A stretch of DNA of 63,018 bases from an uncultured archaeon (GTDB lineage: Archaea > Aenigmatarchaeota > Aenigmatarchaeia > QMZP01 > QMZT01), in assembly GCA_964347025.1 (NCBI GenBank), contig CAYFWU010000003.1, positions 8,834-71,851 of the forward strand, written 5' to 3'. Both the position numbers and the translations under genes were made by a program. The notes beneath the pieces are model-generated. The model did not search any database, was not told the origin of the DNA, and was given only the letters and a program-made list of their open reading frames with translations. Positions 3,470 to 36,700 of this stretch are shown one piece after another; positions within the stretch are counted from its first letter, which is position 1; each line of letters starts with the position of its first letter.

Positions 3470-3502
3470 AAGTATTATTTTGATTTTATTATTGAAATAT
3501 GT

Positions 3503-4279: not shown

Positions 4280-4324
4280 TCGTTTTCACTCTTTATTTTT
4301 ATTAATTTGTAATTAAATACCTTC

Positions 4325-12709: not shown

Positions 12710-15700
12710 CTATTTCTTCATCCTTGCCTTGAGCGAATCCACGTAACTCTCAGCCATGGTGAACATACCCTGCTTCATCTTATCCTTCGCCAGGTTCAAT
12801 TCGATCTCCAGATCACCTGTGTCCACCTTCCTCTTCTTCATCGCCTCTATCTCTTTATCAATCTCCTCTATCTTCTTGTTCACCTCTACGTACTTGTCGA
12901 TCTCCTTGTCCGAGAGCCTTCCCGTATCGTGAATAAGTGGACGGAAGGATATGAAGTATGGTTTACCTTCGTTGTAGGCCGGGTTCTGAACGAGGGCTGT
13001 TCCTGTCACAAGCTTGACAACCTTCGAAGCGTAATCAGTTCCGTACTTTGTCTTAACCCTGCCTATATCCCCTTCGTACTTCGTCCTCAGCTGTATCTCT
13101 GTCGCTATGTTCGCCCTTATCGCTCCCCTGAAGTCCATAAGGACCTGGGAGATCATGAACACTCCTATTCCCCACTTACGGAACTCACGGCAAGCCCTTT
13201 CTAAGGCAACATAACCGCCCTTACCTCCATACTTCGGAAGCAGCCTGTGGACCTCATCGTATACCAACAGCAATTTTATCTCCCTTTCCTCTGGAAGCGC
13301 AGCCTTGAAAACAGAGCTAACGGTCTTCCTGACGAAGTGATCTATCTGGCCTGTTTCCAACCTGTTCATAACGAATACCGTTATTTCGCCAGGTTTCCTG
13401 TACTTCTGGATGTCCACCTCCATATCAGGATCGGTAACAAGAATGATATTGGTCTTGAATGCCGTTGCGTCCTCTGGTTTAAGGCCGAACTGTGAGTAAA
13501 GATTGATCATCCTCTTGTCTCTGCATGACTTCATGAACCCTGTCCACTGCGCGGTCGGATCGAAAACTATGACAGGAACCTTCCTCTTTAACATCTCCTC
13601 TGCAACTATCATTGCCGAAACAGATTTACCTGCTCCGGTCGCTCCCGCCGCCAACGAATGCATCATTAACGCCTTGGTATCCATGTACGCCTTCACATCG
13701 GTCTCTGCTATCTTACCCACGAGAACTGTGTCAGGTCCGGCCCTCGGAAGCTTCTTGAAGTCTATCGGGAATATGTACCTCCTCTTTGCCCTCCTTCTCA
13801 CCATCCAGGTAGCATAGAGCTTTCTTCCGAAATAGAAACCTGGTATGAGAAGGAAGATCACCACATATGTTAACCAGTGAAGGAAAACTGCTCTAAGTAA
13901 AATCAGAGGAGCCGGTAAAAGGATAATATCAAAGGAATCAACCGCATACGCCGACTTCCTGCCGTCCCAGTATGTGACATTCAGTTCAACAACGTACCTG
14001 TCCTGTGGCGTACCTTGCGGAATGGGAATTGATTTCGTGAATGTCTTGATGTTCTCTATTGCCAGGGTTTCCGAATTCTTTACTATGAGATTCTCTGTTT
14101 CCAAACCCTTCACTTCGTAAGTAACAATTATGTCATCTATTTCTGCCGTTGGTCCCATGTTTAAAAGCGTGACTTCGAATTTAAGGTTACCTCCAGGTTC
14201 AACGGTCTTTGTTAAGACATTAACATTTACATCAAGCAAGGGTTCTACAGGTATCTCGACCTTTATGGTAACGGGCGTTACATGCGTGATGTTTCGGTCC
14301 CTAACATTCGAAACAATATCACCTGTGTATATGCCAGGCTGTGTCGTCGGCAAAGCGTAAAGCTTGACCTTCATAACACCCGTTGATTTTCCTCGAACTG
14401 TGAATACTGGTTTTTCAATCTGGACGAGCTCCCAGGCATTTCCTGTAACGCTTGTTTCGACCGTGATTGAACTCCCAAGGTTGTTGAGTATGTCTATCGA
14501 ATGAATTTCATGTTCCCCTGGTCTCAGCGTGACGAATATCAGGGTTGATTTAATTTCGACGGGGATCGCAGGAACTCCAGGCACTCCAGGCACACCAGGA
14601 GCCCCCACTCCTACTCCAGGTCCAACTCCAGGTGGCGCTGGTGGAGTTGGCGGTGCGGGTGGGCAATCCGTCGAACATACTGCTGTTGATTCACCGGTTA
14701 CAGTTGAACAATTTCCGTCACCACATATGTATTCAGCAAGGACGTAAGCTCCTGAAATGCTGCTTGTATTTATGCTTATGGTGGAATCGTTCAGGTTTAT
14801 AGAGCTTGGCAATCTTGTCCATGTGATATCCTCATTCGAAACGCAACCAACTCCTATCCTTGTCCAGATACTGCAGTGATAAACTCCCAGGTTACTCAGC
14901 GTGAATCCTGAAAGTTGTGAATAATCCATTGTCAGCGTCCCCATACTGGAGTTCAACACGTTGGTTATGGATATTCCCCTCAAAGCCGAACTACTAACCC
15001 AGATAGGCTCTATTTCACCAAATGTCACAGGATCAATAAGGTTAACCAACAGTGGCGTATTGATAAGATTCATAGAGTCGTTCCAGAAGTATACGTCTAT
15101 GTCGAAATTCCTGGCATCAACAGTTTGGTTATAGTAGCCAGTTCCATTGGTTGTGATGTTCGCATAGGATATGTTTGTTCCCACTTCCCACAGACTGAAC
15201 TTGACCTGTATGGGTGGTCTCGATATTTTCTCTTCGTCCCTAGCCTCTCCTGAGAAGAACACACCTGCAAACGCTTCAAACGTTGTTGTAGTTGAATTAC
15301 AGTTACCTGATTTATCGCAGGCAGTTACATTTAACGTGTGTATACCAGCAACTGTTACGTTAGTGAAGTTGTATTCAAAGAGGAAGTAGTCCCCAATTTC
15401 TGAAATCAAGGTCATGTTGAACAGTTCGGTGTAATTCGTTCTGGAAATTCGAACGGTTGCATTCTGAACAACACCTGCATCTGTCACGTTCGCCCGTATG
15501 TTCGCGGTTGAGAACATTGGAACCCTTGCTGCAACTATTATCTCTATGCTTGGTGGTTCGGAATCCGTGTATATGATAGCGTCTTGTTCGCCGTCAAAGT
15601 ATAGCAAGCTCTTGTTGGTGTAGTTCGCTGTTACGTTGATATCATAACTCTTTGCTATCGCGAAATCAGGAGCAGTGAAGTTCATCAGCCACAGGCTTTC

Positions 15701-18700
15701 GTTGGATGAGTAGGTTATGTTTGTGAGGTTCATTTCCATTGATAGGGTCTCGTTATACAATGTTAAATTCCATATCACCAGGCTCGTATTGTCCACAGGG
15801 CTCGTCCCGTATGTAAGGTTAACCTTTACCTGTATGGTGTCGTTCCAGGTTATGTTTATAACAGGGTTTGTATTCGTGGGTTCGATGATATCAACAAAGT
15901 AGGGGTGAACAGTTAGGTTAACAAAGGTCTGTTCTGTCTGCGTCCCTGATGCGGCTGTATAATTGGTTGTCTTTACATTGCCCGTGTAATAGTTCCACTG
16001 GTAGATAACAGGAGCTGTGTAATTCAGGCCTATGTACTCGTATTCACCGATATCCATCTGGAGCTGGGTCACATTCTTTTGAACCACACCAAGTATCCCG
16101 CCTTCTATTCCTGTATCGAGGACAAGGTAGATGTTACCCGTGTTATGGACCGTTATGGTTTCAAGAGGACCTGTGGTTCCCTGTATAACCTCTTTCGATA
16201 TGTTTGCAGGCGTTTGCGTCCAGGTAAGGTTTACTGGAACTATCACACTTACGTTGACAACATCGTACGTCCCCAGCCCGCTCGCATTGATCATTCCGTA
16301 ATACTTGTCGCTCGGGAAGTTGCTTTGAACGTATATCTCGATGGTCACGTATTGCGTGTCGTTTATGGGCATTGATGCTATGCTGTCAGGATAGTAGGTC
16401 ACGGTGAAGTTATCGCATACCGCCCCGGACCCTGGTGTGCAGTTGAATGATATGCTGTCGACTTGATAGTTACCTATTGACCTCAGGGTTATCGAGATAT
16501 TTTCGGATGAATCTGGTTGTATAACGATATCGCTTACGTTATCCTGAACTATGTCCAGTACAGGGTTCTGAGTGACGTTTACCTGTATGTAGGTCTGGTT
16601 GAAACCGGGGGAACCGTTAATATCTATCCAATCCGACGTTAGGTTCACATAATAAACTCCTGGTGAGGTCGAGTTCGGGATGTTTATGATGGGTTGTCCG
16701 TAACTCGATTCGTTCCTTAGTATGGTCCCGAACGCGAACGTATCCTGGGAAGCTGACCAGCTAACGGGTGTGGTTATAGAAAGGTTTACATAGTACGCTC
16801 TTGCATGGCCCGTGTTGTTCATGTCTATTCTGACCGGGATGTCCTCCCCCGCGTAAATGGTTATGTCGGTGATTTCAATGCTCGTTACATTCGGATTTAT
16901 CTCCATCGTTGTTATTCCAGCAGCCAGAAGATCTCCGTAAAGATAACACCCAGATTTGCTTCGGGTATCGTTTGCGCATATATGAAGCGTATGGATCCCC
17001 GAGATGTTGGAGGAGTAGTTCACGCTGTAATAGGAATCGTTCTTAACCATGTAATCCTTGAATGGGCTCTCAACCTTGGCATAGTAATGGAGCCATGAAT
17101 AGTATGCAGAACTTATCTGCGATCCGTTGACATCATGAACGGTCAGGTTTATGTTCTGGTCTCCAGGAAGCGTGAAACTCGTTCCGTTCTGGACGGCATC
17201 AGCCGTGAAGTTCGCTCCTGGGGTTACGGACTGGTTTATCACGATCAAGTTTTCGTTCACGGTGATGTTTATGTAAACTGTCGAGGCCTCATCGTTGTTG
17301 AATGTTACGTTGAAGTATTGCATCTCTCCCTCGAAATTAACATATTCCGTGTGATTGTATCCTGATTCGTTACCTACTGACTGGCGGATCAATTTCGAGA
17401 TACTGGTGTAGTTTATATCTCCGGGTCTCATTACCCGTATCCAGGCCTTGTCAACCGCGAAATTATCCGTTATTTTCGCAGAGATTGAAACGTTCTCGAA
17501 GATTATTTCGAATATGTCCGGCGTTACGCTAACATCCTCTATTACCGGAGGAATATCCGTTACGTTCAGCCAGAAGTCCACGTAATCCTCGTCAGGATCC
17601 GCAGGCAACGTTGTATTTATTACCCATAGCTTTACGTAGAACAATCCCTCGGTGGCTCCACCACCAACACTGTAGTTAACATAGATATTTTGTTTGTCTC
17701 CCTTCTCTACATCCAGGGCCGGAGGCGAATAAACAACAAGTCCTGTTCCATTCCCCTGTAATGCTATGTCAAACACCATCTTAACGTTACCTATGTTGGT
17801 TACGTTTATCACCCCAACCTCACCATCCATGTTCGGAGGTGTTAAGAAGGTTCCGAATGTCCTCGAAACAGGTTCTATCAGCCAGCTTGAGTTCAGGGGA
17901 ATGCTTATATTCATCAAGGCCAGGTCCTCTCCGCCAAGGACGGCTGCTGCCTTTATGTATGCCCAGTAGTCACCCGGTTCCTGTCCACTTGGGATGTCCA
18001 TGTAAATATCCACTGTTAAGTTTTCGGTGGGTCTCAAAATACCCTGGGTTTCAGGTATGAAAGTCACGTTGCATTCAGGACATTTCGTTTGCAGATTGCT
18101 CCCTATACCAGAGGTTAAACTCATTGTTATATCTCTTACCCAGTCGTTTCCTATTGAAAGGACGGTTACGTTTCCTATGTAAAAATTCTGGCTGTCGTGC
18201 GGGACATTGTCGTTGATTAATTGCGATTCAAAGATGTCCAGTATAGGATTTGAGGTGACCTTGATATCTGTCGTATTAGTTGTCCAGTTCCACGCCTGAT
18301 CAGGATCCATCCATGATGCATTCCCTATCAAATGGATAAGTTGAGGTGTTGTCGCTTCTGGGACGGTAATCTCGAAATGCCAGACGCATTTCGTAGTGTT
18401 AGACATGTTTCCGCAGTCATGGTAATGCAGTGTCTGATTGAATATTATGATTCCTCCGGCATCATCATACGCCGAGATGTTTACGAAGTACGCGCGGGGC
18501 GGACCAAGGTTGGTGAAGTTTATGTACATGTCTGTCGTGTAGTTAAGAGTCTGGGTTATATTGGAGGCTATGATTTCAGGGGTTTGCTCCATTGCATAGT
18601 TTATCTTACCCCACACCGTGAAATTACCTGCGTACGAATAATTCGCATTATACTCAGGACTCTCATCCCGAGCGTAAACTGTCACGTCATATACGCCCCC

Positions 18701-21700
18701 TATGGGCGGGTAGTAGGAAACCCTGTACGTATCGTTGTATATATTCGACATGGTCTCATTGGTATACGTACCATTGGGAAGCTGTATGTAGGCCCATACA
18801 AGGTCAACTTGGTAATCATCCGTAACGTTCGCCGTTATATTGGTGTAGTTAGCAACAGCCTCTATTCCGTCTGTCGGGTATATAGAGGTCCCAATTATTT
18901 GGGGCGGTTCCGTATCCTTTATGTGGATCAGGGCAATGGCCTCGTCTATACGTGCGCTGTAAAGTTGCGTGGCGTTATCCGTTATGTTGCATTTGAAGGT
19001 CATGTCTCCCTTATCTTCCGGATACCATGTAAAGAAAACATATCCAGTCGAGTTCGTGCTCTTGCTGCCGTTGTAAACGTATCCGCTGCCGTTGTCGTAA
19101 TAGAAGTTAACCTGGTAATCGCTTATGCCTGCTCCCGATTCCCCATCGACCACCCTGCAGGTGTTGTTGAATGGGAAGGGATAGGAAACGTTGGATTCGT
19201 CCGGAGGACTTATCCATACAACATCGGCCAGACCTGATATCTCTATAATCACGCTATCCTGTCCCATGTCATAGCTCGGTTTAGTGGCTTTAGCCGTGAT
19301 ATTCCGGAAGCCTGTTTGCTGACTACCAAGGTATATATCAGTGGTTTCGCCTTCCGGAGCTATCTCTATGCCCGATTCATTGTACCATCTAACCTCCAGG
19401 TTACCTCCAGTTATGTTGTTGTTATTTTCATCCCAGACATCGGCATGTGATCCACTTATCGTATCATCCTTGTCCCATTGACTTCCGTTCAGAGGATAGG
19501 TAATGTTGGCGTAGAGGGCCCCCTTGATAGTCAAAGTGGTTGTGTTTGTTTCGGAATCTTCAGAACCAAGTTTTGTTGCATTGATGTAAATGTTATGGAC
19601 GTCCGCTTGTATATCATCAGGCGGGTTGTATAATATCTCTGTGTTACCACTGGAATCTGTTGTGTTGTAACCTATGTAGCCATAGGTTGAGTTGTAGAAG
19701 CTGACATTCGCTCCTTCGGCACTCCCAAGCAACGCTTCTTTTACGTGGACGCTTATGGTTGAGTTGTAATAATATGATCTGTTAATTGCAAATGTGTCGT
19801 TCCTGTAGATTATCGTTGGGTCTCTGTTTATAACATCTATGAAGAGCTGCCTCTTTATCCTTATCATCGTATATCTTTCCGGGACTGATGTATTGTAGTA
19901 AAGTGTTTTATCATCCGTTATGTTACACGTTATATTATACCAGCTAGCGTTCTCTGGCGAGCCTCCTCCAGTCACCCATGTCCATCTAGCCCTTCCGTTA
20001 AGGGTTGCATTCGAAAGATCGTAGTCCTGATAGGTTCCGTTCTTGTAGAAAGTCACGTTGTATCCCTCTATTGGTTGTCCTGTGTTCGCATCCGTTACAT
20101 AGCAGTCCACCTGAATTGTAGAACCTGCCTGATATTCGGTTCCGGATACCGGTTGTATATCGCTTATCTCGCTCCATCCGTATACATAGACAGTCGAATA
20201 GTTTGTATTTCCGTCGTAATTGGTTCTTGTCGCATTCACGTATGTAAGGTTTGGACCAAGCGGATAATTGTAGGGAACACTCCAGTTTGTGTCGTAACCT
20301 GAAGTGAGGTTAACCCAGCTACCGTTGTACCAGACAACAGAAGAATCATTCACAAAGTTCCCACACTCGTCCTTCACAGTTGCATTGAAATAAGTCGTTG
20401 TGTTCCTGTTGATAATGGTTCCATTTACGGGATTTACAATGGTTATGTTTAGCTGCCCTATTATGGTAAAGCTTCTGTTGGAAGGACTTGTGAAGTTTTC
20501 ATATTCGTAGCACGTATCATTCGTTCCTCCGAACCAATATTGTGTCCCCACGGTTGACCCACATCCGGGATCAGAGAAGTTCTCGCAGTAACCATTGGAT
20601 GATATACAGGAATACGTACGGCTGAAGTTCGTCCCGTTCTCTGTTACCCACATCCATCCCTTCGCACCATCAGGCCATCTGGGGTAGTCATCATCCCTTA
20701 TCCTGAACCTCATCATTTCCTCTTCGTTCCCGAACCTTCTGATGGACGAATTGCTGAATATGTAGGAAACGGTCACATTGTCCTCTGTTAACGTGAAGTT
20801 TTTCACTTCCGTTTCATCAGTGTAGTTGAACGGATCAGTAACGTTGAACTTGTAGTAGTTCAATCTCCCTGGTGTCTGATTCGAATCCGAACAAGCGAAT
20901 CTTTCATAGATGTACACATCCGTTCCTGCAGAACTCTTGGTTTCGTTGTGTACAAGAGTCCAGCTAACATTATCAAAACTCTTCCAAAGCGAGATGTTAT
21001 CCTCGTTCCAGTCTGCATCTCCGAAATAAACATGGAAGGTATACTGCCTCCCCCAGCCATCCAGCACAGGAGTTACCCACGGATTTGATAGATACGGGGC
21101 ATTACCAATGTTGAATGCATCTACTTCTGTCGTCTCATTCAAAACGTAGTAACTCCTGTATACCCTCATTATTATGTTCCAGTCACCCTTTTTCTGTCCA
21201 CTGCTATCCCAGCTGCAGTTGTACCACCCCCCTCCTTCCTGCCAGTTCCCTGTACAGTAACGTATGGTCGCACCGTTCTGCAGCCTGTATTCCTGAGGAC
21301 TTCCTCCGTGGTATCCTAACGTTGCTGAATCCACGCCATAACCCAAATTATCTGAACAATCGTCCTCAAGATATCCGCTCACGTTTACGAGATCACCCTG
21401 CAGGTACCCTACCCTACCCACGGGATAGTATACGTAAGGTCTGAGGTCTGAATGTACTTCTACTTCGTATATTGAAGAGTTTACATCGAAGTAACAGGAG
21501 TCGTTGAATATTCCACCTGTCCAGTTGTGTGTGCCTATCGTGTAATTACATTCACCAACTGGCGGAGCATCAAGGAAATAATAGTTCGTATAACCGCTGC
21601 TGTTCACACTTGATATGCTTCCCGGATCCCAGGAATTCGGATCAGATGCATTCGTGGTTACCCAGAACATCGTATTACCAGAGCCTAACGTTTGATTTGT

Positions 21701-24700
21701 GTCGTTGTCTATCATCTCCAGGCTGAGGAGAACAGAGTACGTTCCGTTCCTCCAGACCCATGAGTTTTGATGTCCCAGATAAGGCTCTACCCTGACATTA
21801 TCCCTCTCTATGCTGAAGTTGTGGGCCTGCGTACCAACCTGGTATGTATGCGTATCTGTTGCATTAAAGCTGTAACTCCAGTTACCTATCGCTGTACAAC
21901 CTATTGATTCGAAGCTTGTGTTAAGATAAATGGTCTGGTTTATCGGACCTTCCAGGGTTATTTCATTATCCTTCTTCCAGTCCTGATACTGGAAAGGACA
22001 ACCACCCCCTGATTCTACATTCAGACATTTTATGTACAACTCGATAGTCACGTTATCCAGATCTTCATCCGTTACCCTCACAGAGAAATTCCTCATTTCT
22101 CCCCATCCTGCCGGATCCTTCAGATTAGTTTCATTCTCAAGGACAGGCTTGGTTTTGATGAAGAAATGATTCGTAACGTTGGTTGAATTGGGGTTATACA
22201 GGTACTTCGAGGAGTTCATCCTTGTGTGATACCACCTTGCTTTCATTGCAGTTGTCGTTCTGTTACATTCGTAAAATCCATCCGATGGATGCTTGTAGAC
22301 CGTGCAGTTGAACACAAAACTGCTGTTTTCATTTATGAATTCTATCGAAACATTCCCGTCGTTTATGAAGTCTCCTTCACAATCACTCTCGAGATAAACC
22401 TGCTGCGTTATGTTATCTACACCTCTCAAGAACTCTTCTCCCATCTGAGGCGACGGGCTGACAGTGTAGATGGTTTGATGGAGATCCCCGTATATCTTGA
22501 GTATAAGGTTTACCGAGAGGTTCACGTTCTGGTAACAGCTATCGGTAACCCCGGCCTTCCAGGACTGGTTACCAACAGTATACTGTGGAGAGCATCCCGG
22601 GTTGAACGAGTAGTTGGCATGTCCGGTTGTGTTGGTCTTTGTGATATTTCCATAGTCCCAGCTGCTCGGGTCAGAAGAGTTCGTTGTTACCCAGAATGTA
22701 ACGTTCGTGTTGACTGCGATGGATTCGTTTCTATCCGTGTCATTGACCTGCACTATTAGCAAGGTTATGTCGTTTTTGGATCTGTTGACTTCCGAAAGGT
22801 TACCAAATGTGTATCCGATTTCTATACTGTCCACTGTTATGTTGGGACCACTCTGATTGGTGGTGTTCAACGTATTGGTCCCGTCATCCAGTTCGAACAT
22901 AAAGAAGTTCGTTGTTACATCTCCGATATCGTTGCAGTTGAAATCGGTAACAAGCAAACTGCATGTATCCTGTCCTCCGTAGACAGTTGTTGAATTCTTC
23001 ATAACCCACGCTCCACCATAGTTGTTGGTCCTCACCCACAGGTTACAGGTGACATTGTCTTCTTGTGGATCCGATATATCAACGCTGTAGTTGTACACGA
23101 CACCCCAGCCGTCCTCTCCCGGAGTAACAGAAAGGCCGCTGTAACCTGGCGGGGTGTTGTTCAGGTAGATGTAATCAGTCAGAACAGTTACGTTGTCGTT
23201 GTAGTCTGGCGTTTTCTCCACAGTCATCCTTACAGTGTAATTCCCTCCCTTATGGCCAAACGTAATCCATGTACAGTTATACCATCCCGTTCCTTCGTCG
23301 TTTACAGTCCCGTTCTCCGTGCAGTTCTCCCATCCATCAGGACCATTCAATTCGAGCATAACCAGGGAAAGGCCTGTCTGGTAACTTTCGTTTATCCCGA
23401 TTCCACTGCAGTCTGTCGGAACGCCGAATCTGAAGGTTACGTTATCACCTACAGGGATGTTTGAAGCATATGTCTGGTTGGGTTCTGTCAGGTTTGTTTT
23501 TAACTGTCCTACAATGGTTATTGGAAGTGCTTCTGTGTTGTACGGTGAAGCAGCTGAAGCCCCTCCCTTGTAACACGTATCATTGTAATACGCACCTGAT
23601 CTCCAGTACTGGTTTCCCACACCATACGAGCAATTCGGATTGAACGTGTACCTCAGATAACCGGAATTATCGGTCTGATTCACATAAGCCAAGATGTAAA
23701 CATTTGGCTGGGAGGCGTTTGTTGTTGTCCAGAATCCTCCCCAGATCCCTCCCTCCACAGTCACAGAACCCCTGTCTTCATCGGTTATGTATATTTCAAA
23801 CAATTCCGTATCATCGAAATCCCTGTCTACCGAAACCCCGTAACCAGAAGATGGAACACCCAATGAATCATCCTTTTCGAGTGTGAAATTCGCAGCAGAA
23901 CTGTTGGTGTAATTCCAGACATCTATGGATGTGAAGTTGAATTGCTTCTGGCTTGAAGACTGATTCTGGAGATCGGAACAATTGAACTGGTGGTTTCTGA
24001 ACCTGACAAGTCCGGTCTGTTCGTTCAAGGATTCATTTATCTTGCTCCAATTCCCGGTCAGATTTACGTAAAGTGAGACGTTGTTGTAATCATCATCAAG
24101 ATCGTAGAGATCTGCCCGGAACTCCCACAGCTCTCCCCATCCTCCCTGCGATCCCCCTCCACCGGATCTTATTGCCTGAAGACCTGTGAAGTACGGGCCT
24201 GTTGCAAGGTAGAACTGCTTGCTCTCGTTCCCTGTCAATGATGTTCCGTTGTAGTATTTTTTCGTGGCATTCATACTCACGTTATACCATGACCCCGGAC
24301 TCCATCCACTGTGTCTGTTCGGGGTGACATTACACTGATATATTCCATTCCCTAGATACGGAGAACATCCAACCAGCGGACACCTTTCATTTTCCTGGGT
24401 CACGTTGAAAACGATGCACGCCCCGCTGACCTGACCACAGCCGTCGGATTCCGTGATATTGGCTGTTGACGTTATGTTATCCACGCCCCTAAGGTAGTGA
24501 TCGTCTGAAAGCCACATGGTTGCATTGAGGGGTGTGGTTGAAACCTTCCATGAAACATTCGTTGAGTTCGTATCCTTATACTCACTTTCATCAACCACAC
24601 CTGCTGTCCACCACTGTGGTCCAACGTCGAATGTACAATCAATATCGTCATCAAGTTCAGAAGATAGGAATGTTAGGTTACCACCTTCTGCCGTATACTT

Positions 24701-27700
24701 GTACCCGCTTGTGGGATGGACTGTGAAGGTATTGTTATCCTTTGTGTACCAGAACCTTCCTTTCTGTGCATTGCCTATTGCCACATCTGGATCTTTGTCT
24801 ATGTCCCATATCTTCACCTTGAATGCGAACGAACCTGTTATCCTCTGGGCCACAGTTCCGTTGCCCAAAAGGACTTCTACGGACACGTTATCTTTGTCCA
24901 GGGTGAAGTTCTCCACAGGTGTGGTATCGTTGTAAGAATTTCCCCCCGTTCTCGGTTCATTTCCATCATCCGTCACGTTTATAACGTACTGTCTCTGTCC
25001 GATATCGGCGTCATCAAACCCGGAATAAATGTAGGTAACTGTTTGATTCACTCCATTTACACTGCTATTGGTGTGTATGTTTTCCCATCCTACACCACTC
25101 CTGTTAACCCATATCCTAACCGTCATGTTGTCATCATCTTCATCGCTAACGTTTATCCTGAATGTATACGTCTCGCCCCAACCCCAGTCTTCAGCGGGCG
25201 TTAGCGACCAGGAGTTGGGTTCGATCACAGGCTCTGTCTCTATGAAGAAGGATGAGGTCAATGAATAGTTTACCGATATGAGATCCGAAAGGTACGCCTC
25301 TTTCGAGGAGTTTACTATGATCTCATATCCCATTGCAGGCATCACACCCGGATTCGCGGACGTGTTGAACGTGCAGTTATAGTACCCGTTTCCTACATGC
25401 GTGATGTTCGAACAGTAGAAGGTTTGGTTGGTCTTGTCGCTTACCATACTCATCGTTAAGTTTACATCTGTCATGTTGTTTCCACAGCTGTCATTGACTT
25501 TAACCTGTATGGTTACGTTTTCACCCCTGAGATACTCCTTTCCTTGAGGTGTGATCAAAGTGTTTATTAACGTGCCGTTCATCATTATTGTGAAGTTATC
25601 GGTAGCCTCCTGTTCATAATAAAGATCAGTGGATTCCGCATACCACTTCCTGATCCCTGGCTCGTATGAGCAGTTCGGGGCGAAGTAGTAATTCCTGTGA
25701 CCTGATGAATTGGTCTGTGATGTGTTGCCCCAGTCCCAGTGCGTATCATTTAACTGCACGTAAACAGTAACATTCATCGGGACAGGAACGGATTGATTAT
25801 CGTCATCACTTACATTGACTATTAACAGCGTGGAATTCGAGGAGTCAGACGTTATGTAGACCTGGGATTTGTTTCCTAAAACATGCGCGATGCTCACGTT
25901 CGAGGGTTCCAGGATAGGGCCGCTAACGTTCGAGGTGTTCCATTCGTTCTCCTCGTCCGCAATCTGGAAGTAGAAGTAATTATCCGTGTCGAAACCTGCC
26001 GTGAAGTTAACATCACTCTTGTTGAAATCAGAGACAATGACGGAACAATATCCCTGACCGCTCGGAAGATTCGAAAATCCTTTGTTAACCCATATCGTTC
26101 CATTATCAGTGGAAACCCAAAGCGTACAGTTGGTTTCGTCATTTTCCGGATCATCAATCTGAATAGTGAAGTTAAACCACCTAGTCCATCCATCCGAGGC
26201 AGGCGAGACCGAGGGCGAGGTTTGGTTTTGAGGTTGTATGTTCTCCAGCCAGAACCATTCAGCAAAGGTCGTTAGGTTATTGTAATACTTATTCTGCTGA
26301 TCTTGCGAGGATACGTTTATGCTCCAGTTGCCTTCGATCCTCCCGGTTGAATTCCATGTGCAGTTATAGCTTCCATTTCCATTGTAGTCTATTGGCGTGC
26401 ATCCAAGCTGATCCCCAACAGTGAACACCATCACACTCTTCAGTATATTTGAATCGCTTATATTCTCTCCGCAATCCCCGAGTATGCTGAAGTTGACGGG
26501 TATCTGGTCGGTTACGTTGTAGGTGGACCCGTACGTGGGCTCGTAAAGATAGTTCATCAGCTGACCCTTGATGTAAAATATCGTCCATGTGGTTTCATTC
26601 GCATAGTAACACTGATCCCCGAAACTCACGTACCAATACTGAGTATCTGCCGTGTAAGAGCAGTTCGGATTGAATGGGTGGTTCAGATAACCGGTTGTGT
26701 TCGTGGTTGTTGTGTTGACCACATTGAAGGTCGAAGAATCGTTTGTTACATTAAAGCTTCCGTTTGCAGAAGGATTGCTCACAGGTATGCTGCCTTTGTT
26801 AACATCGAATAACCTTACACTAAGTATTTTCGTATCACTCCCCTGTCTTGCTATCTCCCAGCCAGAGCCTCCGATTATCTGGAAGGTCAGATTATCCTTG
26901 GTAAGATTGGCATTATTCACATCCGTTTCGTTCGTTTTACCCCACTGGTTGGTTGCGTTGAATTTGTAGTATATGTCAGGACCCTGCAAGAAATCAGTGC
27001 ATGTGAAATTAACAAGGTAATCCAGACGGGTCCATGATGTATTGTCAACCCTGTTCTTTGTTTCCACTTCTATGAACGGACCTCCCTGGTCGTACGCCTT
27101 CCATAAGGTCACGTTGTCCTCATTTCCTATTTCGTTATCCCTGAAGAGCACAGAGAAGTTGAAGGTATGGCCCCATCCTTCCGTGTCATTATCCACTGAT
27201 ACGTTTATCAGTCTTGGTCTCTCCACAAGCCTGAATGCGTCTTCATACAAATCCTTATCTCCGTAGAAGAATGGAGGTTTGTTCGCAATCATTGTTATGT
27301 TATGCAGGCCCAAGGTGGCATCAGTCAGGTGGTTCCACGTGCAGTTGTACGTTCCGTTGTCCATGTCAATTCCGCTGCAGAGGTAGTCATTGGCTCCTGT
27401 TATGTTGAACTGGACTGTTGATAGATTGATGTATCCGCATGTCGGATCCTCATCATGGACGTTCCCGTAAATAATGACGGGTTCTTCGCCCCTGACGTAT
27501 CTCACATCATTGACAGGTTCTAACAGTGTGTTGTTCAGGATGGATTCTATGGTTACCGAGTAATTGTCAGAGTAGGAATCGGCATAACACTGGTCCCCAA
27601 CTATCCCTCCCATCCACTTGTGCCAGCCCACTTCGAAAGTCGGGCAGTCCGGATCAAAGTATATTTCAATATAACCCTGCGCATCAGGCGCGTCAGTCCC

Positions 27701-30700
27701 TATGTCCACGAAAATCTCGCTTCCGCCACTGCTCTCATTCACGTAGAAATGACCTGTTCCCGCAGAAAGATCCGAACCCTGTAACGGACTCCCTGTGTAG
27801 TTGTTTATTGACTGCATCCTGAAATAGGTGTCGTTGTTGAACGTTCTGTTAACATAACTTCCGCTTCCGTTGGTGGGGAAATTGAACGTTACATTTCGTT
27901 TAGTGACATTTATGCTGTGTATGCTCGTGTTGTGTTTTGCGTTGTACTCATCACTTGCATTTATCTTCCAGTACCATACCCCCAGGTCAGTCCCAAGGCT
28001 ACAGGAACTGTAAAGCCTTGTTAAGTTAGCCGTTGTGTTCACACAATCAAAGCAGTACTCCGTATCTCTCAAGGTCCAGGGACCTCCTGTCGAACGTGAA
28101 TCCCACAGGCGAAGGGTGACGTTGTCATCATCATCCGTTACGTTTACATAGAACGTTATCTGCGATTTCGAGGGGTTTGAACCCCACGGAACTGTAAGTT
28201 TATCGCTGTATCCATCCGATATGACTGGATCAACCTGATGGAAGAATGATCTTTTCGTGAATGTTTTTGGGTTATAATAAGTTTTATTCGATTCAACCGT
28301 TACGTTATACCATCCCGACGGGTTGTTCGAGATATTCCATGTACAGTTGTATATCCCCTGAGTGAAGTTGTTAACGGGTGAACAGGTATCGTTGAAGCTG
28401 TTATGCAAAATAAGGACCGTAATGTTCGCGTCAGATATGTTGAATGCGCAGTCAGCTCCTGACGAACCAAGATAGTCCTTGATGTTAACCTCAATCGTAA
28501 CGTTCTCATTAGAATAGTAATACGCATCGGATGTCCCGTTAGGTTCGAGTATCGTGTTGTTCAGCCAACCATATATCGTTAGCGTGTAGTTTACCGAAAG
28601 ATTATCTTTGTAGTAGCTATCGTTATCCGTTCCGCCATACCAATCTTGCGGTCCGACCGAATAGCTACAGTTGGGCGAGAAGTTCCGGACGAGATAACCT
28701 GATTGTGTCGTGTTTTTGTAACCACCATCCACTTTCGAGGTGTTGTATGATACCCAGATACTTCCGTTTGTTCCATCGATAACGAGCGAACGGTTGTCCG
28801 TATCATTTATTAGAAGCCTCAGCATTATGGTTTCTGACCTATTCACACCCGAGGCGTTCCCGTAATCCCCATACAAGATTTCGACATCATCCTTGTATAT
28901 GCTGAAGTTATATTCAGGTCGATCCGTGATGTTATTAGCATCGGTTGCATTTAATTTGAAATACATTCCTCCATCGGTTATGTTCTCATATGTGAAGTTG
29001 TTATAGTAGAAATTGACCCATCTCGGAACCAGGCAGGCAGTGCATATTGTGTATTCCATCAAATACCATGTCTGGTTGTCACTGGAAAGCCAGAAAGATA
29101 TATTTACGTCTTGCGCATCCACATCGCTGGCATTGACCCTGAATGTGAAATTCTCCCCCCAACCGCCATCCTTCTCATAGATATAGGTCTCGTTGTTCAT
29201 ATCAGGAGGCGAGAATATATGTGGTATTATCCTGAACGCGCTGAATTTCGTTCTCGTGTTGTTGTTGTAATAGGAAACGTTTGATGCGTTCATATCAACA
29301 TCGTACCATCCGAATGACTTGTTGTTGAAGTCCCACGTGCAGTTGTACGTTCCATTCCCAAGGTTGTCTATGCTCGAGTTGCATGCAAATTCCTCGCTTG
29401 ATGCATTATTCCTTATGGTGAAATTCACGTAGGCATTGTCTATGTAAAGCGAGAAGTTACACTCATCCATCACCTCTCCTATTATCTCAAGAACGTTCTC
29501 GCTCGGAGTGACGCTCTCTTCATACGTCGAGCCATTCGGCCATGTGACGTTCGGATAGAGCGTGCCCCAGACGGTTACGTTGAATTCGCTGGAAACCACA
29601 TCATTGTAACACTGGTCGTTTAATATGTAAGCCCTCCAGTTATGCTTGCTTGCGTTGTGCGTACAGGTTGGATCGAAACGGTATACAAAGTAACCTGACG
29701 AATTCGTCTGGTTCCATCCATCCTTTATATAGTCCCCAACCTGCCAAGAACTCTGTGTTACGTTGAGGGAGACGTTCGGCGAGTTGTAGTAAGAATCCCA
29801 TGCAGCCGGCTGATTCCTTGTGGTGTCGTTCGCGTAAAGAACAAACTTTGCATAGTCGCTTCCCTGCCTCGTTACATCGGATTCGTTACCTTCACTGTAA
29901 GTAAATTGAAGATTGTCTTTGGTTATGTCAAAGTATATCTCTGGTTCACTGGCATTGGGTTCTTCATTGTATGCCTGGCCATTTATATCGGTTGCATTGA
30001 ACCTGTAGAACCTTGTGGCACCCACCTCTCCACAGGTGTACGTATTGTTAAAGCTAACGAGGGTATTGCTCGGGCTCGAAACATTCTTACATTCAGTTAC
30101 GGTGTACGTCCCACCTATTTTTTCGAGCAGGCAGACCTTAACGTCTGTGTAGTGCGTAACGTTTATGGTGAAGTTAAACAGAGAGCCCCAACCTCCTGGA
30201 TCAGGAGTGACGTTCGGGTCTTCGAGCTCGATAGGAGCAACCACGAAAATGCTGCCAGGACTCATGTGCGTTCCGTTGTTGTAGGATTCATTCCATGAAA
30301 TCATGGTCACGTTGTAGTAACCGGAAGGAGCACTTCCAGAATTCCATGTACAGTTGTAGATGTTTCCTGAATTGTTTGTTACCCACCCGGAGGTTGGGCA
30401 ATAGAAGGTATCGGCAGAAGAATTTATCTTGAATCTGACCTTCACCCCTGCAATAGGATTTCCACAGTCATCTTCAACTGTTCCGTTTAAGGGTATGAAA
30501 TCTCCCTGGTCATGGCTCACGTTGGTTATAGGATAGGTAACATTGTTTACAAGATCTCCGTATATATGTATCGGGAACTGTGCGCTTTCGCTATCGTTGT
30601 AACAACTCGCTCCTGATACGTTTACCTTCCAATAGGTATGACCTGGCATTATCAGCGGATTGCATGTTGCATTGAAGTTGTAAAAGTAGTGAGTTGAATT

Positions 30701-33700
30701 CACGTACTCGCTGATTTGTATCCAGTTGGTTTTGTTGAGTAACCAAGTCCTCACCTCGGTATCATTATCCGGATTTACTGTATAGTTGTTCAAAATTGTG
30801 TCGATGATCTGGTAGGAAAGCAGGACCTCGTGGCTCGGTCTTGAATCAGAACGGTTTATGTAAGAATCATTCCCGCTCGTTACTGTGACATTGGTGTAGT
30901 CCTTTAGAACATCAAATTCCACTGAACCAAGCGGAATGAAATCCAGTGTATCGTTCTGGAATTGATAGCTGTCATTCGCTGTTAATCTGTAATACCACGT
31001 CCCAACATCACTGTACGTATCGTTGCAGATGAATGTGTGATTGAAGGTTATGACTCCATACTGGGAAGAGTTCAATGTCCGTTCATCGTATTGAACCCAC
31101 TGCCATCCTGTCTGGCTGGAGTTCATGTAGAACTTAACAGTCACGTTGTTGTTGTCTTCATCAGAGACGTTCACAGAGAAGTTGAACGGAGATTCACCCC
31201 AACATCCGTAAATCCCTTTATCCAAGGTTACGTTATCAAGTTTCGGAACGGTTCCAAGGACAAAAACATTCTCCTCGGTCGTGATGTTCGTGTTGTAAAG
31301 GCTCTTTGAAGAGCTGAATGATACGTTGTACCAACCGAATGGGAAGCCGGAGTCTGTCGTTACCGAACACTCCCAAACCCCGCTTCCTATGTGCGAAGCA
31401 GAACAGGAATCTGTGAATCCTCCATTGGTAAGGTTGAATCTTACGGTGGCCTCTGTTATCTGGTCTCCGCAGTAGTTTTCCAGACTTCCGTTGATCGTTA
31501 TCTGCGAGCCACGTGTATAGTTATTACTTCCATCGGGATGTGTGAGGGTGTTCAAGAAACCGCCATAAAGATAGAACGTTAATTCACTCGTTAGATTGTC
31601 TTTATAACATGTTGAACCCTCGAATCCTCCTCTCCATTTATGCTCACCCAGGTTAAACCTTTGATCATTGCTCCAGCTCGTCCCGTCACACCAATCAGTG
31701 GTTGTCATAGTTAACAAGATATGGCCTGTTCCGTTTGTTGATGTCGTATAAGTACCCCAAGTTCCAAGGTTAATGGTAGTCATCCTGATCTTTCCGTCCG
31801 TATTGTTCGGATAGGTTTTGTTATCAGTGTCGTTCATTTGCACTATGAACTGCGTTGTCTGTGATCTGTTCAGAGAAACATTTTCTGAGGGCGTTATATT
31901 GTAGACATCAACGTCATCCTTTTCTATCTCGTAACCATGTATACTCGTTTCGTTCTCACCGTCAGGATTGCTGGCATTGAAGAAGTATTCCCAAGATGCG
32001 ATGTGCGAACAGTTGTAATCGTATGTGAAGTTAACCTGTGTCCAATTGATACAGTTGGTGCAGTTGTATTCATCAACCATTGTGTAGTTTTCCCAAGGAC
32101 CTGATTTCAGGTAGTGATGCCACAAGCGAATTGTCACGTTCCTCCCGAACCTGTCCCTCACCATAACAGTGAAATTCCATTCTTCCCCCCACCCTCCTGA
32201 AGATCTGCTGATGGTTTCATTCTCCAACAAAGTAGTGTAATCATAGGCTTTTACCTTGGTGAACAGATCCTGCTCCTCCTCGAACATCCGTCCGTATGTC
32301 CAGGTGTAGTTCAGTTTCGTTACCGTAACGTTCGTGTCGGGATTCAGCGTAGCATCAGCATGGGAGTGAATCCTTACGTTACGATAGACTGGATTCGGAT
32401 TCAACGAACCAACAAACCTCTCCTTCTCATCCGAATCCATCGTGTGGTTGGACCAGAATTCACCGCTAACGCTCTCGAAGGAATAGTTCTGCCATATCAA
32501 TTTATACTCACTCAAAACATCCTCTATCGATACGTTCGCTTCGCCTATTGTCAGGTTCGTCCCGCTGAAATCATAGTTAACTAACATCCTCATTTCACTC
32601 AACTTTTCATACGGTTGGGCAGGGTGGGTGAAGCCATACGAAGTCGTTGTCGTGTTCAAAGAACCGGTCGAATCTATATATGTATTATTCACGTACGAGG
32701 ACGAAGCTCTGGTATCGCGAACACCCCTTGCCCGGAAAACCTTCCTACCGGCATCCGTGCAGTTCAGGGTAAAGTTCAAGTTTGTGGAACTACCACTTCC
32801 CACGTTCGGAACGTTCCAGACAATCTCGTTGTTCGATTCGTTGTAACTTCCTCCCTGATAAACGTCCGTTACGTTACAATCAGGAGAAACGAAAAGGCTT
32901 GCATTCCACTCATTCGATGTCGGAGCATCACCTACGTTCTTTACATTGAGAGAATAGTTGTATGTCACATTTGGCTGTATACTCCTGACCTCATGCCACG
33001 GGTACTCTGGTTTCTGGTAAATAACCAACCCAAACTCCAGGTGCGACTCGCTGGAATAGTTCATTGTGGTTATGGGATATGGAATCGCTTCTTCCGTGTA
33101 CTTGTCTGAATATGAATCGGACCAGTTCAACTTCCACCTCACGTTGCCCAAGGTCGATTGTGAGGTTGGGGATTTTGCCTGGTATGTTGCAACCACATAA
33201 TCATTGTAGACCAAGCTGTCGTATATCCACCATGTTAACACGTTGCTCGTAAGGTTGGTGTAGGAGTCGTAATTTACAGGACCCTCGACCTGCGGGTTTG
33301 CAGCTGTCCATCCAGATGATACAGTTTCCCTCAGGGTGATGGTCCCTGCTGTGGGTCCGCATCCCTTGTTGTGTATGATAATCTTTGAGTCAAATACCTT
33401 ATCCTCTCCTATTGTCTGGGGCGTTTCCCTGATAATTTCAAGTATTGAAACGTTATCCCCGTTCTCTATGGTGTAGTTTTCCGTGACGCTCCTCTCGCTT
33501 GTGGAAGGATAGGTGTAATTGAGTGATACGTTGATCGTTGCATTCTCATTAGTATTCGAAGAATTGATCTCGAAAATCAGGGTTTGGCTGCCCGGCTGGG
33601 AGATTTCGACGGTCTGTGATGATGAGACGTCCCATCCGGAGGGAACTTGAACGGTAACGTTATAGAGAATGGAATCATAAAAAGGATGTGAGACCGTGAC

Positions 33701-36700
33701 GTTGAAGCTTTCATTCGTGTAGTTACACATGTAGTCAGGCGAAGTGATGCTTACTTCAGGAACATCGTAAACGAAGATTTCACCCCTTTCCGACACCTTT
33801 GTGGAGTATTCAACATGCGCTTCCAGGGTGTAGACACCCTCTGGCCTTCCCGTAAGGTTTACCCAGGTGAAGTTTTCGAGTCTCGTTGAATTTTCCTGGA
33901 TGTTTACGTTGACATGTGTGGATGAGTTTACGACTACTCCAGATGAATTCGTTATGTTCAGGGTTATGTTAGAAAGGTATGAGATGTTCAGGGAGTTCTC
34001 TATCTTTAGTGTTACATTGAAAAAGTTATCCTCTCCGAACACCATACCATTCGTTTCATTCCCATCAACCTTTGATAATATATCTATGACAGAGATTTTG
34101 GGTTTGTAGTAAGCCTTTAAGTTCATGTTGTTTATCGTGACGTTGGAATCTCCTAAGTTCTCGATTTTCGCTATGCAATATCCAGATCCATTTGGAGCCA
34201 TCTGGCTTCTGAATATAGTTACGTTCAACTCCTCTGTTGTGTTGAGGTGGTATGAATGTAGAATATCGATCCATTCTGTGGAATTGTGAATGTAAATCCT
34301 AACGAAGGTATCGTTCCCTGTCCAGTTGGTCTGCAGATGACCTACCCTGTATTCACCTGCAGGACATTCGAACTTCGTTATAGTGTATGATAGCGGAGTC
34401 ACGTTAACCGGCATGGAGTCCAGCGATCCCGCTTCCTCCAGCCTGTATGCTATCACGGTTGTATAATTATCATCCTCGTAATATCCCGGAGAAACTGGCG
34501 CGGATGTGTTTGCTGTTACATTCAGTATGTAGGAATCCTCGTAAGGAATGAGGTCTGTCGCGTTTACGGTCCATATAACCTGAGTTGTGTTTTCCTGTCC
34601 GACACCGGCAGGTATTGTCCCAAGGTATTGTGTCACAGAGGGTAGAACATCCCAGGAAAGTGTTTGCAGGCTGGCATTGGTATCATCTGCATCCCTTCCC
34701 CTTATCCAGATGGTTGCATTGAGAACGAATGGATTGTACTGGAAGATTTCGGAAGGCGAATATATATCAGTTACGTTGAATTCAGGACACTGTATGTCGA
34801 GCGTCACGTTCCAAACAGTCGAATAAGAAGATTTGTAGTAGTTATCACTCGCTGCAACAATCAACCTCCATTTCTGCTTGCCCGGATCGTAAGTACAGTC
34901 CGCAAGGAACTCATAATTCGCATACCCGCTAGCGTTTGTCGATGTACTTCCTTCCACGAGATAGCTTTCATCATACTCTGTTACCTCAACCTGTATGTTT
35001 GCGGATGGCCACGAACTATTAACCAGATCTCCCCTGTCCGTGTCGTTGACCATCACCCTGAACCACGTCGAGGAGATTTTTGTCGTTGTCGTTTCATTCC
35101 CGTAGATATGTACGAACTGGATATCGTCCTTTTCTACTACCGTGGTGTTATCATCATTAAAGTAATCCCCGGCATAAACCGTCGTCGTTCGGTTGTTGCC
35201 CTCTGTATCTGTTGCATTGAACTTGAAGTACCACGTATCTATATCCGTGTATGTGAAACTCTTGTTCCACGAAAGCATCTGATTATTGCAGTCTTCACAG
35301 ATCTTTGACCCATCAACCTGTTCCCATTCTCCTGTTGAGTTCTTGATCCACAGCCAAACCGTTACATTATCTCCTATATCCGTTACATTAACGGTGAAAT
35401 TCCTCGGTATGGACCAGCCATCCGAACGAACGGTGACATTCGCATATCTAAGCATCGGAATCATGGTCAGATAGAAGGCATTCTCTTTGAAATAAGTTCC
35501 GTTGTTGTAGTAATCCTTCTTTGAGATCATGGTTACGTTATACCATCCAGATAGCTGACCTGATGAGTTCCATTCACATGTATAATTGTTGCCTGTTGTA
35601 TTCGTTACCCAGGTCGTGTTACTCGGGCAGTAGTGGGTTCCTCCTACGCTTGAGTTTATTATGAACCTCACGCTCGCGTTTGCGATAGGCGCGTTAGAGC
35701 AGTTCCCATCCGTGACGTTACCGACAAACGTTATGTTCTGATATGCCTCGTAAGTTTCTCCGTTTGGTGATGTGATGTTATTCTTCAAGAAACCGTATAT
35801 CGTAACATTGAATTCGCTGGATTCATTATCCTTGAAACACGTATCATTCGTGATGTTCATCTTCCACTGGCGAATCCCTGGAGTGTAATTACATGTGGCG
35901 TTGAAGTCATACGAATAATTCTGGCCGGGTGTTACCTGCACGCCGGAATCCCAGTGCGTGGAGTTCAGCATGACGTAAAGGTAGACTGAAGGCCCTGTGG
36001 TGTTCACAGTGGAATCGTAATCATAAACGTACGTAGCGAGGGTCGTGGTATCCGATCTATTAACTTCTGATCCATCTCCTGTTAGGTGTTCTACTGACAC
36101 CAGATCCTTCTCCACGGTGTGGTTAATGATGGTTGAGACATTCGCAATGTTAGAATGATCATCTGTGGCGTTGAAGTAAACAAACCATGTCGTGAGATCT
36201 GATTGATCTGCAACAGAGCAGGAATAGGATTTGTTGAATATGAATTTGGTATCATTGGTTTCATTGTATTGCTTCTCCTCCTGGTACTGCCAATCACCGG
36301 TCTTTGTCGAATTAAGCCAGAAGTATACCGTTACGGTATCATTATCCTCATCGGTTACATTCACTGTGTAATTATACGTTCGGTTCCACCCGCCTGATGA
36401 TGGAATAACAGTTGGCTCTTCCAGAATAGGAGCGGAGGAAAGATAGAAGCTCACATTCTTGATATCGTAGTTGTAATAACTCTTGTTCGTGTAGAATTCA
36501 ACGAGGTAAGTTCCAACCTCTTTGTTTGTTGTATCCCACGTACAGTTGTACCATCCATCTGTCTCCTCAACCAGACCGTTCGATGAGTTACACTGGTAGG
36601 TTTTACCATTCTCCTGGTTTGTCAGGTTGAAGTAGATCGTTCCGTCGCTTATGAGATTGGTTATGTTGTTGCTGCATGCATATTCATCGCTTACATGCGC

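Follow-up and report, generated by a model that had tools for sequence, protein, structure and literature searches.

A predicted giant surface protein with an ancient three-domain super-repeat in a probable DPANN archaeon

What kind of protein is encoded where a sequence motif returns about once every thousand nucleotides (nt) across more than ten kilobases of archaeal DNA? The question is raised by a 63,018-nt stretch of contig CAYFWU010000003.1 (assembly GCA_964347025.1, positions 8,834 to 71,851 of the forward strand), here called the window. A first-pass annotation, made from the letters alone, had reported a ~1.0-kb periodicity from 32.19 to 21.05 kb and placed it in a series of 22 diverged supermodules, 12 of them in an unbroken run, each built of three domains with conserved cysteine pairs. 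We found that the periodic region lies entirely inside one giant open reading frame (ORF) on the minus strand (12710..56287), which stays open without a break over 43.6 kb. The region is likely to be the extracellular stalk of a SPEARE-type giant surface protein of a DPANN archaeon, acting as a rigid spacer to the host.

We searched the translation of the giant ORF with phmmer, using one unit (amino acids [aa] 8691-9035) as the query, and identified 23 other copies, whose E-values range between 1e-3 and 6e-34. An iterated profile, converged after four rounds, gave 30 matches, of which 20 were near full length on the 311-position profile (E-values from 1e-59 to 1e-111). The units of the unbroken run start at window positions 32209, 31207, 30211, 29173, 28186, 27196, 26209, 25192, 24151, 23128, 22117 and 21076, giving a spacing of 987-1041 nt (329-347 aa). 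This confirms the proposed periodicity, and the motif series stands where it had been placed, far beyond chance. In a blastp self dot-plot of aa 8027-12041, every off-diagonal lies at a multiple of ~335 aa, and the series extends over 10 periods; the period is thus recovered by profile searches and dot-plot alike. Ungapped BLOSUM autocorrelation of the protein gave weak peaks only, as indels blur the period, and Tandem Repeats Finder (longest period 500) found no long-period repeat in the DNA, as expected for copies that share just 41% nt identity.

Three sub-profiles, which we call A, B and C, tile every unit. Domain A is ~85 aa long (GWG...F.V.V.D...W...C...Y.FNATD), B ~110 aa and C ~112 aa; the profiles of A and B cross-hit, making these two domains distant paralogues. 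We count 21 modules that are complete (A-B-C) and two units that consist of A and B only, besides several lone A, B and C domains. This amends the earlier count of 22, and the run of 12 stands: the 22 GWG sites on which that count was based include two A-B-only units (aa 4556 and 6954) and one lone A (aa 2237), and two complete modules, at aa 1581 and 2571, are without an exact GWG. The region given for the run, 21050-32200, was rightly positioned, except that its lower bound cuts the 12th unit, which starts at 21076 and runs to ~20165. The parts of the giant ORF are as follows, from the N terminus to the C terminus after the ORF itself (TM, transmembrane):

12710..56287, minus strand: giant ORF, 14,525 aa (ORF list; translation ends in a single terminal stop)
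56075..56251, minus strand: N-terminal, cytoplasmic winged-helix domain (ArsR/HTH_11-like), aa 13-71 (weak Pfam and NCBIfam matches)
55943..55999, minus strand: first TM segment (TM1) or signal-anchor, aa 97-115 (hydropathy scan; sequon boundary)
51548..55942, minus strand: distal head, aa 116-1580, no recognisable family; a lone C-type domain at aa 1129-1233
47570..51547, minus strand: module block 1, with ABC (aa 1581), ABC (1903), lone A (2237) and ABC (2571) (sub-domain profiles)
44999..47569, minus strand: X1, aa 2907-3763 (comparison of X copies; NPCBM_assoc match at aa 2919-2979)
41963..44998, minus strand: module block 2, with ABC (aa 3773), lone A (4112), ABC (4225) and AB (4556) (profiles)
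39377..41962, minus strand: X2, aa 4776-5637 (comparison of X copies; AlphaFold2 model; Foldseek)
34811..39376, minus strand: module block 3, with four ABC (aa 5638, 5969, 6298, 6630) and AB (6954) (profiles)
32249..34810, minus strand: X3, aa 7160-8013 (comparison of X copies)
20165..32248, minus strand: module block 4, 12 unbroken ABC, aa 8029-12041 (profiles, dot-plot; last C domain partial)
13937..20164, minus strand: membrane-proximal tail, aa 12042-14117, with lone C, B, C and C domains and NPCBM_assoc (CARDB-like) at aa 13146-13217
13835..13936, minus strand: second TM segment (TM2), aa 14118-14151 (hydropathy scan; homologues have a single TM here)
12713..13834, minus strand: cytoplasmic HerA/FtsK-superfamily P-loop ATPase and C-terminal tail (Pfam, PDB, NCBIfam, motifs)

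X is a higher-order block of ~850 aa, present in three copies with 38-54% mutual identity, each standing between runs of modules, and it is kept in many family members. The membrane-proximal tail is conserved across the family. Searches of Pfam and PDB sequences found no relatives of head or tail, the NPCBM_assoc domain of the tail being the exception.

The AlphaFold2 (AF2) model of one unit (aa 8689-9027, with an alignment of 20 paralogous copies) had a predicted local distance difference test score (pLDDT) of 88.8 and a predicted TM-score (pTM) of 0.77, and consists of three all-beta domains of 7-9 strands each. Sub-profiles and model thus both support the tri-domain supermodule of the first-pass annotation. 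For X2, nine sequences gave an all-beta model of roughly eight sandwich domains (pLDDT 76.8, pTM 0.47), with no enzymatic fold predicted. In Foldseek searches of the PDB, the module matched tandem macroglobulin (MG)/immunoglobulin (Ig)-like arrays (C3, C5, A2M and CD109, E-values ~1e-9, best 7e-10) and the extender repeats of giant bacterial adhesins (6xi3, 5irb and 4p99), and X2 matched MG-domain arrays (best E-value 3.5e-16). Entry 6xi3 was among the better-superposing matches, with a query TM-score (TMq) of 0.41 and a root-mean-square deviation (rmsd) of 8.5 A; the modest Foldseek TM-scores arise because domain orientations differ. In a library of viral structures, the module matched only generic tandem Ig-like (Big_1, FN3) proteins. 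Structure prediction and search are therefore consistent with ordered beta-sandwich domains in Ig-like or MG-like arrays; beta-sandwiches were what the conserved Cys pairs had led the annotation to expect.

Pfam gathering thresholds for Big_1 and Big_7 were not reached by the modules: in a 5,000-aa scan both families scored 17.7 bits, with cut-offs of 34.9 and 24.1, respectively. Unit by unit, Big_7 matched 5 of 20 units (best E-value 4e-6), Invasin_D3 4 and Big_1 3, with Filamin among the recurrent weak matches. We found no PDB entries related to the module by sequence. Domains A, B and C share their fold class with the Big and Invasin_D3 families yet are not members by Pfam criteria, and no existing Pfam family covers them. 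Extrapolated from ~108 aa per domain in the modelled parts, the whole ectodomain would contain ~130 beta-sandwich domains.

To analyse the cysteines, we aligned 460 modules, from the window and its homologues, to the profile. Columns 61 (A) and 196 (end of B) both carry Cys in 267 modules and neither does in 188, with 0 and 5 cases of a single Cys (phi 0.98). Columns 271 and 285, both in domain C, are also associated (phi 0.75), as are the two positions of a CxxC at columns 45 and 48 (phi 0.78), and columns 178 (B) and 246 (C) are each ~90% conserved. Mean-field direct coupling analysis of the 460 modules was dominated by short-range, gap-driven couplings and is usable just to rank alternative Cys pairings. 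Among ~46,000 couplings, 61-196, 271-285 and 178-246 ranked 184, 384 and 766, respectively, and the alternative pairings ~10,000-20,000. The patterns suggest that domain C has a pair of its own and that two further pairs act as staples, one joining A to B and the other B to C. The annotation had placed its disulfides within the sandwiches; the pairs do co-occur, but two of the three appear to connect neighbouring domains. The Cys pairing and the high pTM point to a rigid supermodule. Covarying Cys pairs that link neighbouring domains are not described in the literature that we searched.

The paralogous copies are on average 26% identical in protein sequence (19-44%), and the longest exact word that they have in common is 21 nt. 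The proportion of nonsynonymous differences among them (pN 0.53) is lower than that of synonymous ones (pS 0.80), and the synonymous divergence dS is saturated in 189 of 190 pairs. Instead of the dN/dS between modules that the annotation had suggested estimating, we therefore used orthologues. In the related locus L002, where the ATPase is 84% identical to that of the giant protein, the last four, membrane-proximal modules are 74-83% identical to those at the same position and at most 36% identical to any paralogue. Aenigmatarchaeota with ATPase identities of 78% and 73% show this ranking too, and the four modules of the Micrarchaeia locus L063 have 33-37% identity to the same position versus 29-33% to the best paralogue. 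The dN/dS ratios against L002, which are approximate as dS is near saturation, were ~0.05 (modules), 0.08 (tail) and 0.06 (ATPase). The modules are old, and the four tested membrane-proximal positions keep their own identity across DPANN phyla under purifying selection.

The distal end shows another pattern. P0057, an N-terminal fragment from a related species, is collinear with the giant protein (aa 370-3762, window 45002-55177) and 63-70% identical to it, and is without ~2,700 aa between the head and block 2. As this stretch includes X1 and module block 1, relatives differ in distal stalk length by whole blocks. Moreover, the modules that directly follow the three X blocks are more closely related to one another than to any other module, which indicates that blocks were duplicated. 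Near the membrane the array is ancient and position-specific, and at the distal end it is gained or lost block by block.

Chimeras are sometimes found among the giant repetitive ORFs of metagenome assemblies. For this ORF, an assembly artefact or a decaying pseudogene is refuted by the divergence of the copies, the read support, the open frame, dN/dS and the collinear orthologues, and we give it practically no weight. With 41% nt identity among them, and shared exact words of 21 nt at most, the copies are too dissimilar for an assembler to confuse. Independent Logan contigs, assembled from two metagenome runs, span window positions 20000-39999 at flat depth (~11x and ~5x), and the long Logan pieces have zero mismatches to the window; an apparent joint in one contig, going back by 7191, arises where its continuation into X2 beyond position 39999 cross-matches the paralogous X3. 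The identities, positional orthologues, dN/dS of ~0.05 and flat depth all support the earlier view of an old expansion maintained by selection.

The giant protein has a mass of 1.63 MDa and a pI of 4.4, as computed from the translation. Translation probably begins at the ATG of aa 7 (window 56269), the counterpart of the Met with which the homologue P0057 starts. A hydropathy scan identified two TM segments, at aa 97-115 and ~aa 14118-14151, and every one of the 923 N-x-S/T sequons lies between them; shuffled sequences contain 261 +/- 13. This distribution supports an extracellular, heavily glycosylated middle, and the protein is best seen as a membrane protein with ~14,000 residues that are probably extracellular and heavily N-glycosylated. 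A PGF tripeptide at the cytoplasmic end of TM2 was considered as a PGF-CTERM signal and rejected, being neither C-terminal nor conserved in homologues. A basic cluster directly follows the tripeptide.

Behind TM2, the ATPase exceeds the Pfam cut-offs of both DUF87 (34.4 bits, cut-off 23.2) and HerA_C (24.5 bits, cut-off 22). Among PDB sequences it matches HerA at 2e-10, and in NCBIfam it has weak matches to CedD, HerA and TraD. Walker A (GATGAGKS, aa 14215) and Walker B (LLLVYDE, aa 14339) are both intact. The last ~70 residues after the ATPase are rich in Glu, Lys and Leu and look heptad-like, and the alignment of homologues shows invariant Asp, Glu, Leu and Lys positions in this tail. At the other end, the winged helix-turn-helix (wHTH) extension is kept in P0057 and P0066 and is missing from other family members, the majority of which start with a plain signal or TM segment instead. 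The extension would place a membrane-tethered domain of DNA-binding type (window 55943-56269, minus strand) on a surface protein.

An exhaustive search with the module profile identified 775 representative proteins, 334 of them at E <= 1e-30, and a word-indexed homologue search with one module returned a single fragment only. Most of the module-carrying proteins are fragments. One complete member of 5,175 aa has six modules, and the longest row, of 17, is found in a partial protein of 6,938 aa; these counts, which the annotation had proposed to make, are lower bounds, as genes are broken off at contig ends. All named carriers are metagenome-assembled genomes (MAGs) of DPANN archaea: Micrarchaeia, Aenigmatarchaeota and Ca. 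Haiyanarchaeum/Nanoarchaeia. With a profile of the C-terminal TM and ATPase, we found at least 570 loci in species-representative genomes, mainly of Aenigmatarchaeota and some of Micrarchaeota, Nanoarchaeia and Woesearchaeota. In 12 of 13 loci sampled, the ORF stays open through the whole 10 kb (at least 3,333 aa) upstream of the ATPase. The ATPase family also occurs as short proteins of ~550-730 aa (P0205, P0207 and others), and in L004 664 aa precede the ATPase. The closest ATPase relatives, at 84% and 78% identity, come from unclassified uncultured-archaeon MAGs and Aenigmatarchaeota MAGs, respectively. Judged by protein identities to named MAGs, the source organism is probably a DPANN archaeon of the Aenigmatarchaeota.

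Next to the giant gene, the window contains the following genes on the same strand:

11097..12650, minus strand: partner 1, a 517-aa cytoplasmic coiled-coil protein (no P-loop; SHOCT-like C-terminal motif)
5120..11104, minus strand: partner 2, a 1,994-aa surface protein (signal/TM; Pfam, topology)
620..4987, minus strand: downstream genes for a 220-aa protein, an archaeal MinD (3503..4279) and an 852-aa SMC-like coiled-coil protein

We kept 80 of the at least 570 loci for synteny counts. A homologue of partner 1 follows the giant gene in 77 of these 80 loci, and a homologue of partner 2 is present in 73. Partner 2 has a 1,870-aa ectodomain with 128 sequons and an NPCBM_assoc domain, a TM segment at aa 1892-1910 and a cytoplasmic SHOCT-like tail. 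Both partners end with a similar SHOCT-like motif (L..LE..FK.G.IS.EAYE), weak by Pfam. The conserved order and the shared motif suggest that the giant protein and its two partners form a conserved three-protein complex. The genes for the 220-aa protein, MinD and the 852-aa protein are syntenic only in the closest relatives, and the last has sub-threshold matches to archaea-specific SMC-related proteins (1.4e-20). These three could position the apparatus or be unrelated cell-division genes.

On the other side of the giant gene, a divergent neighbour (56413-56865, plus strand) encodes 150 aa that end in a wHTH domain, for which HTH_24 scores above its Pfam cut-off. This protein could regulate the giant gene; no homologue was found in the 80 related loci, which stop short of the 5' ends of the giant genes. 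The flanking genes are archaeal: fructose-bisphosphate (FBP) aldolase/phosphatase, archaeal triosephosphate isomerase (TIM) and MinD. A small surface protein of 449 aa (60192-61541, plus strand), with a signal peptide, a weak DUF11 match and a second TM segment, adjoins the central-metabolism genes (FBP aldolase/phosphatase, TIM, HIT). Inside the periodic region itself, two plus-strand ORFs run antisense, of 177 aa (22226-22759) and 162 aa (24716-25204), and both most likely arose by chance across from a long coding strand. Scanning the window for Rfam families and tRNAs gave no match.

The architecture recalls the SPEARE proteins of Nanohaloarchaeota, which reach 8,553 aa, are mostly extracellular and have a TM near the C terminus and a conserved cytoplasmic domain (PMC6642349). 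Named examples are NAR1_1133 of Ca. Nanohaloarchaeum antarcticus (5,998 aa) and AOV94740.1 of Ca. Nanopetramus SG9 (8,553 aa) (PMC6642349). La Cono et al. 2023 (PMC10266531), who re-analysed these proteins, described SVXNc_0300 of Ca. Nanohalococcus occultus, which at 9,409 aa they regarded as the largest protein of any cultivated archaeon. Its chain begins with a Sec signal, one Ig-like domain and a pair of WD40-like propellers, continues with ~75 Ig-like domains in tandem and a TM, and closes with a VirB4/TraG-like ATPase followed by a coiled coil. The giant protein shares with this design the DPANN genome, the N-terminal signal, the huge tandem Ig-like ectodomain, the C-terminal TM and the cytoplasmic P-loop ATPase. 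Short paralogues of ~650-730 aa are found in both, those reported by Hamm et al. having 655 and 717 aa (PMC6642349). Similar cytoplasmic domains are known from Aenigmarchaeota, Micrarchaeota, Woesearchaeota and Altiarchaeales (Hamm et al. 2019, PMC6642349), which agrees with the phylum distribution that we found. Their labels, "type III restriction-like" (PMC6642349) and "VirB4/TraG-like" (PMC10266531), can be set beside the precomputed Pfam lists of our ATPase homologues, which contain ResIII (PF04851), TraG (PF02534), AAA_10 (PF12846) and FtsK (PF01580).

The giant protein differs in being ~1.5 times longer than the largest protein from a cultivated archaeon, in its N-terminal wHTH extension and in its A-B-C super-repeats and ~850-aa X blocks, which we did not find in the literature searched. 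SVXNc_0300 ends in a coiled coil, and the tail of the giant protein looks coiled-coil-like. WD40 and serine-protease-like regions were not detected in Pfam scans of the giant protein. We class it as a variant of the SPEARE-type design, whose super-repeat, putative Cys stapling, position-specific conservation and size we did not find in that literature.

Other giant proteins resemble it in part. Bacterial adhesin extenders (MpIBP region II, 4p99 and 5irb; the "large adhesion protein" 6xi3; SiiE and Bap-type BIg arrays) are likewise chains of ~100-aa Ig-like domains that act as rigid spacers bearing a distal binding region. Their repeats, however, are usually near-identical single domains, stiffened by Ca2+ and exported by a type I secretion system (T1SS), whereas the giant protein has a three-domain unit with ~26% identity, separately conserved positions among those tested, putative stiffening by Cys pairs and an anchor of TM helix and ATPase. 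The RTX motif GG.G.D was not found in it, and its C terminus is TM and ATPase, not a T1SS signal. Titin, whose A-band super-repeats are 7- and 11-domain patterns of Ig and FN3, offers an analogy in that it is also a giant chain of diverged beta-sandwiches with a higher-order repeat, in which positions are conserved between species and not homogenised; it differs in being eukaryotic, intracellular and unglycosylated. The two are unrelated in sequence, and the giant protein has no known periodic binding partner. Halomucin of Haloquadratum walsbyi is likewise archaeal, extracellular and a giant glycoprotein, but it is secreted as a mucin-like protective protein and is not known to carry a C-terminal TM or ATPase. 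With ~9,000 aa, it had long been cited as the largest protein of archaea (PMC6642349). The Makarova 2014 "dark matter" and YN1 attachment-organelle literature held nothing bearing on the giant protein.

As an attachment stalk, the protein could work as follows. The N-terminal signal-anchor would insert the chain, and ~14,000 residues would be exported and N-glycosylated, with the single C-terminal TM helix holding the chain in the membrane and the HerA/FtsK-class ATPase lying beyond it in the cytoplasm. Disulfides between domains (A-B and B-C) and one pair inside C would stiffen each supermodule, making the array a rigid spacer of defined length that projects the variable N-terminal head from a tiny cell to the host cell. 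The ATPase base and the two conserved partners would form the membrane-side machinery. At roughly 4 nm for each of at least 63 Ig-like domains, it is reasonable to expect a stalk hundreds of nm long; the modules would account for roughly 0.25 um and the whole ectodomain for up to ~0.5 um. By analogy with the bacterial adhesin extenders and the nanohaloarchaeal proteins, the function may be that of an attachment stalk or a conduit.

Several observations weigh against the attachment stalk. Pfam and PDB sequence searches recognised no binding domain in the head. The N-terminal TM, if uncleaved, would anchor the chain at both ends and make the ectodomain a loop, not a free-ended fibre. SPEARE ectodomains have at least one laminin-G domain (Hamm 2019, PMC6642349), and Laminin_G was not found by Pfam scans of the whole giant protein, even at E <= 1 for head, X and tail, although a divergent copy is possible. 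A VirB4/TraG-family ATPase gene lies immediately downstream in nanohaloarchaeal SPEARE loci (La Cono 2023, PMC10266531), whereas here no VirB4-like gene does, the next gene being that of the 517-aa coiled-coil protein without Walker A. The placement beside the named SPEARE proteins comes from architecture, phylum distribution and Pfam signature, and the proposed disulfides and stalk rigidity are drawn from covariation and pTM. No RNA-seq runs containing the stretch were found.

With TM segments at both ends and an extreme N-glycosylation of 923 sequons, the protein might instead be a coat of the cell's own envelope, a glycoprotein sheath or S-layer-like scaffold that protects or shapes the cell and is perhaps anchored at both ends, after the model of halomucin or of S-layer proteins built of Ig-like domains. 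Its beta-sandwich domains do resemble archaeal S-layer proteins (bioRxiv 10.1101/2023.10.27.564410), its extended length of ~0.5 um would be comparable to the circumference of a DPANN cell, and genes for MinD and an SMC-like coiled-coil protein lie nearby. Such a coat has, however, no need of an ATPase of the HerA/FtsK class in the cytoplasm, let alone one whose Walker motifs are intact; the N terminus is of plain signal type in most family members; and coat proteins are usually abundant and modest in size. The cross-phylum, position-specific conservation of the membrane-proximal modules also fits a defined linear assembly better, and we regard the coat as unlikely. ATPases of the HerA/FtsK/VirB4 class are ring translocases, and the best weak matches of the ATPase here are HerA, CedD and TraD. 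Several chains on a hexameric ATPase could form a hollow glycoprotein tube, its lattice set by the super-repeat, that passes DNA, proteins or metabolites from symbiont to host or back. Position-specific conservation would fit defined lateral contacts in such a tube, and for the nanohaloarchaeal homologues adhesion plus a secretion "straw" has been proposed (PMC10266531). Against the conduit, the cluster contains no VirB4 or VirB6 homologues or other secretion components. Nor, to our knowledge, do tandem Ig-like chains form sealed tubes, and we would put little trust in this explanation. Equally slight is the chance that the protein is a titin-like molecular ruler of an intercellular bridge, with chains templated by an ATPase ring and laterally registered through position-specific modules into a disulfide-stapled conduit of defined length that draws host DNA or other macromolecules; the ~2,000-aa partner may be involved, and the wHTH might be released as a signal on contact.

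The strongest Foldseek E-values call up yet another function. Since C3, C5, A2M and CD109 are the top PDB matches of both the module and X, and MG arrays share with the giant protein the MG/Ig-like sandwich topology in tandem, a thioester trap or opsonin of the A2M/complement C3 type was considered. The likeness is confined to single MG/Ig-like domains (TM-scores 0.1-0.4, rmsd 20-38 A), with low global TM-scores and another domain order and function. The CGEQ-type motif (C.EQ) is nowhere in the protein, and both models are all-beta, with no helical thioester domain predicted. The missing motif and domain effectively refute the trap. The attachment stalk stays the explanation that we consider likely.

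Much of archaeal diversity consists of DPANN archaea, which rely on touching their hosts physically, and the machinery of this contact is barely known. Our analysis places the SPEARE-type design of giant protein plus ATPase, described in halophiles, in a much wider DPANN family, whose conserved core comprises three genes and whose defined building block is the A-B-C supermodule. With 14,525 aa, the protein exceeds the largest one from a cultivated archaeon (9,409 aa, PMC10266531) and is among the few archaeal proteins longer than 10,000 aa, which are rare (West-Roberts et al., bioRxiv 10.1101/2023.11.21.568195). As the tested modules are conserved as strongly as the ATPase, the stalk would be more than an inert spacer.

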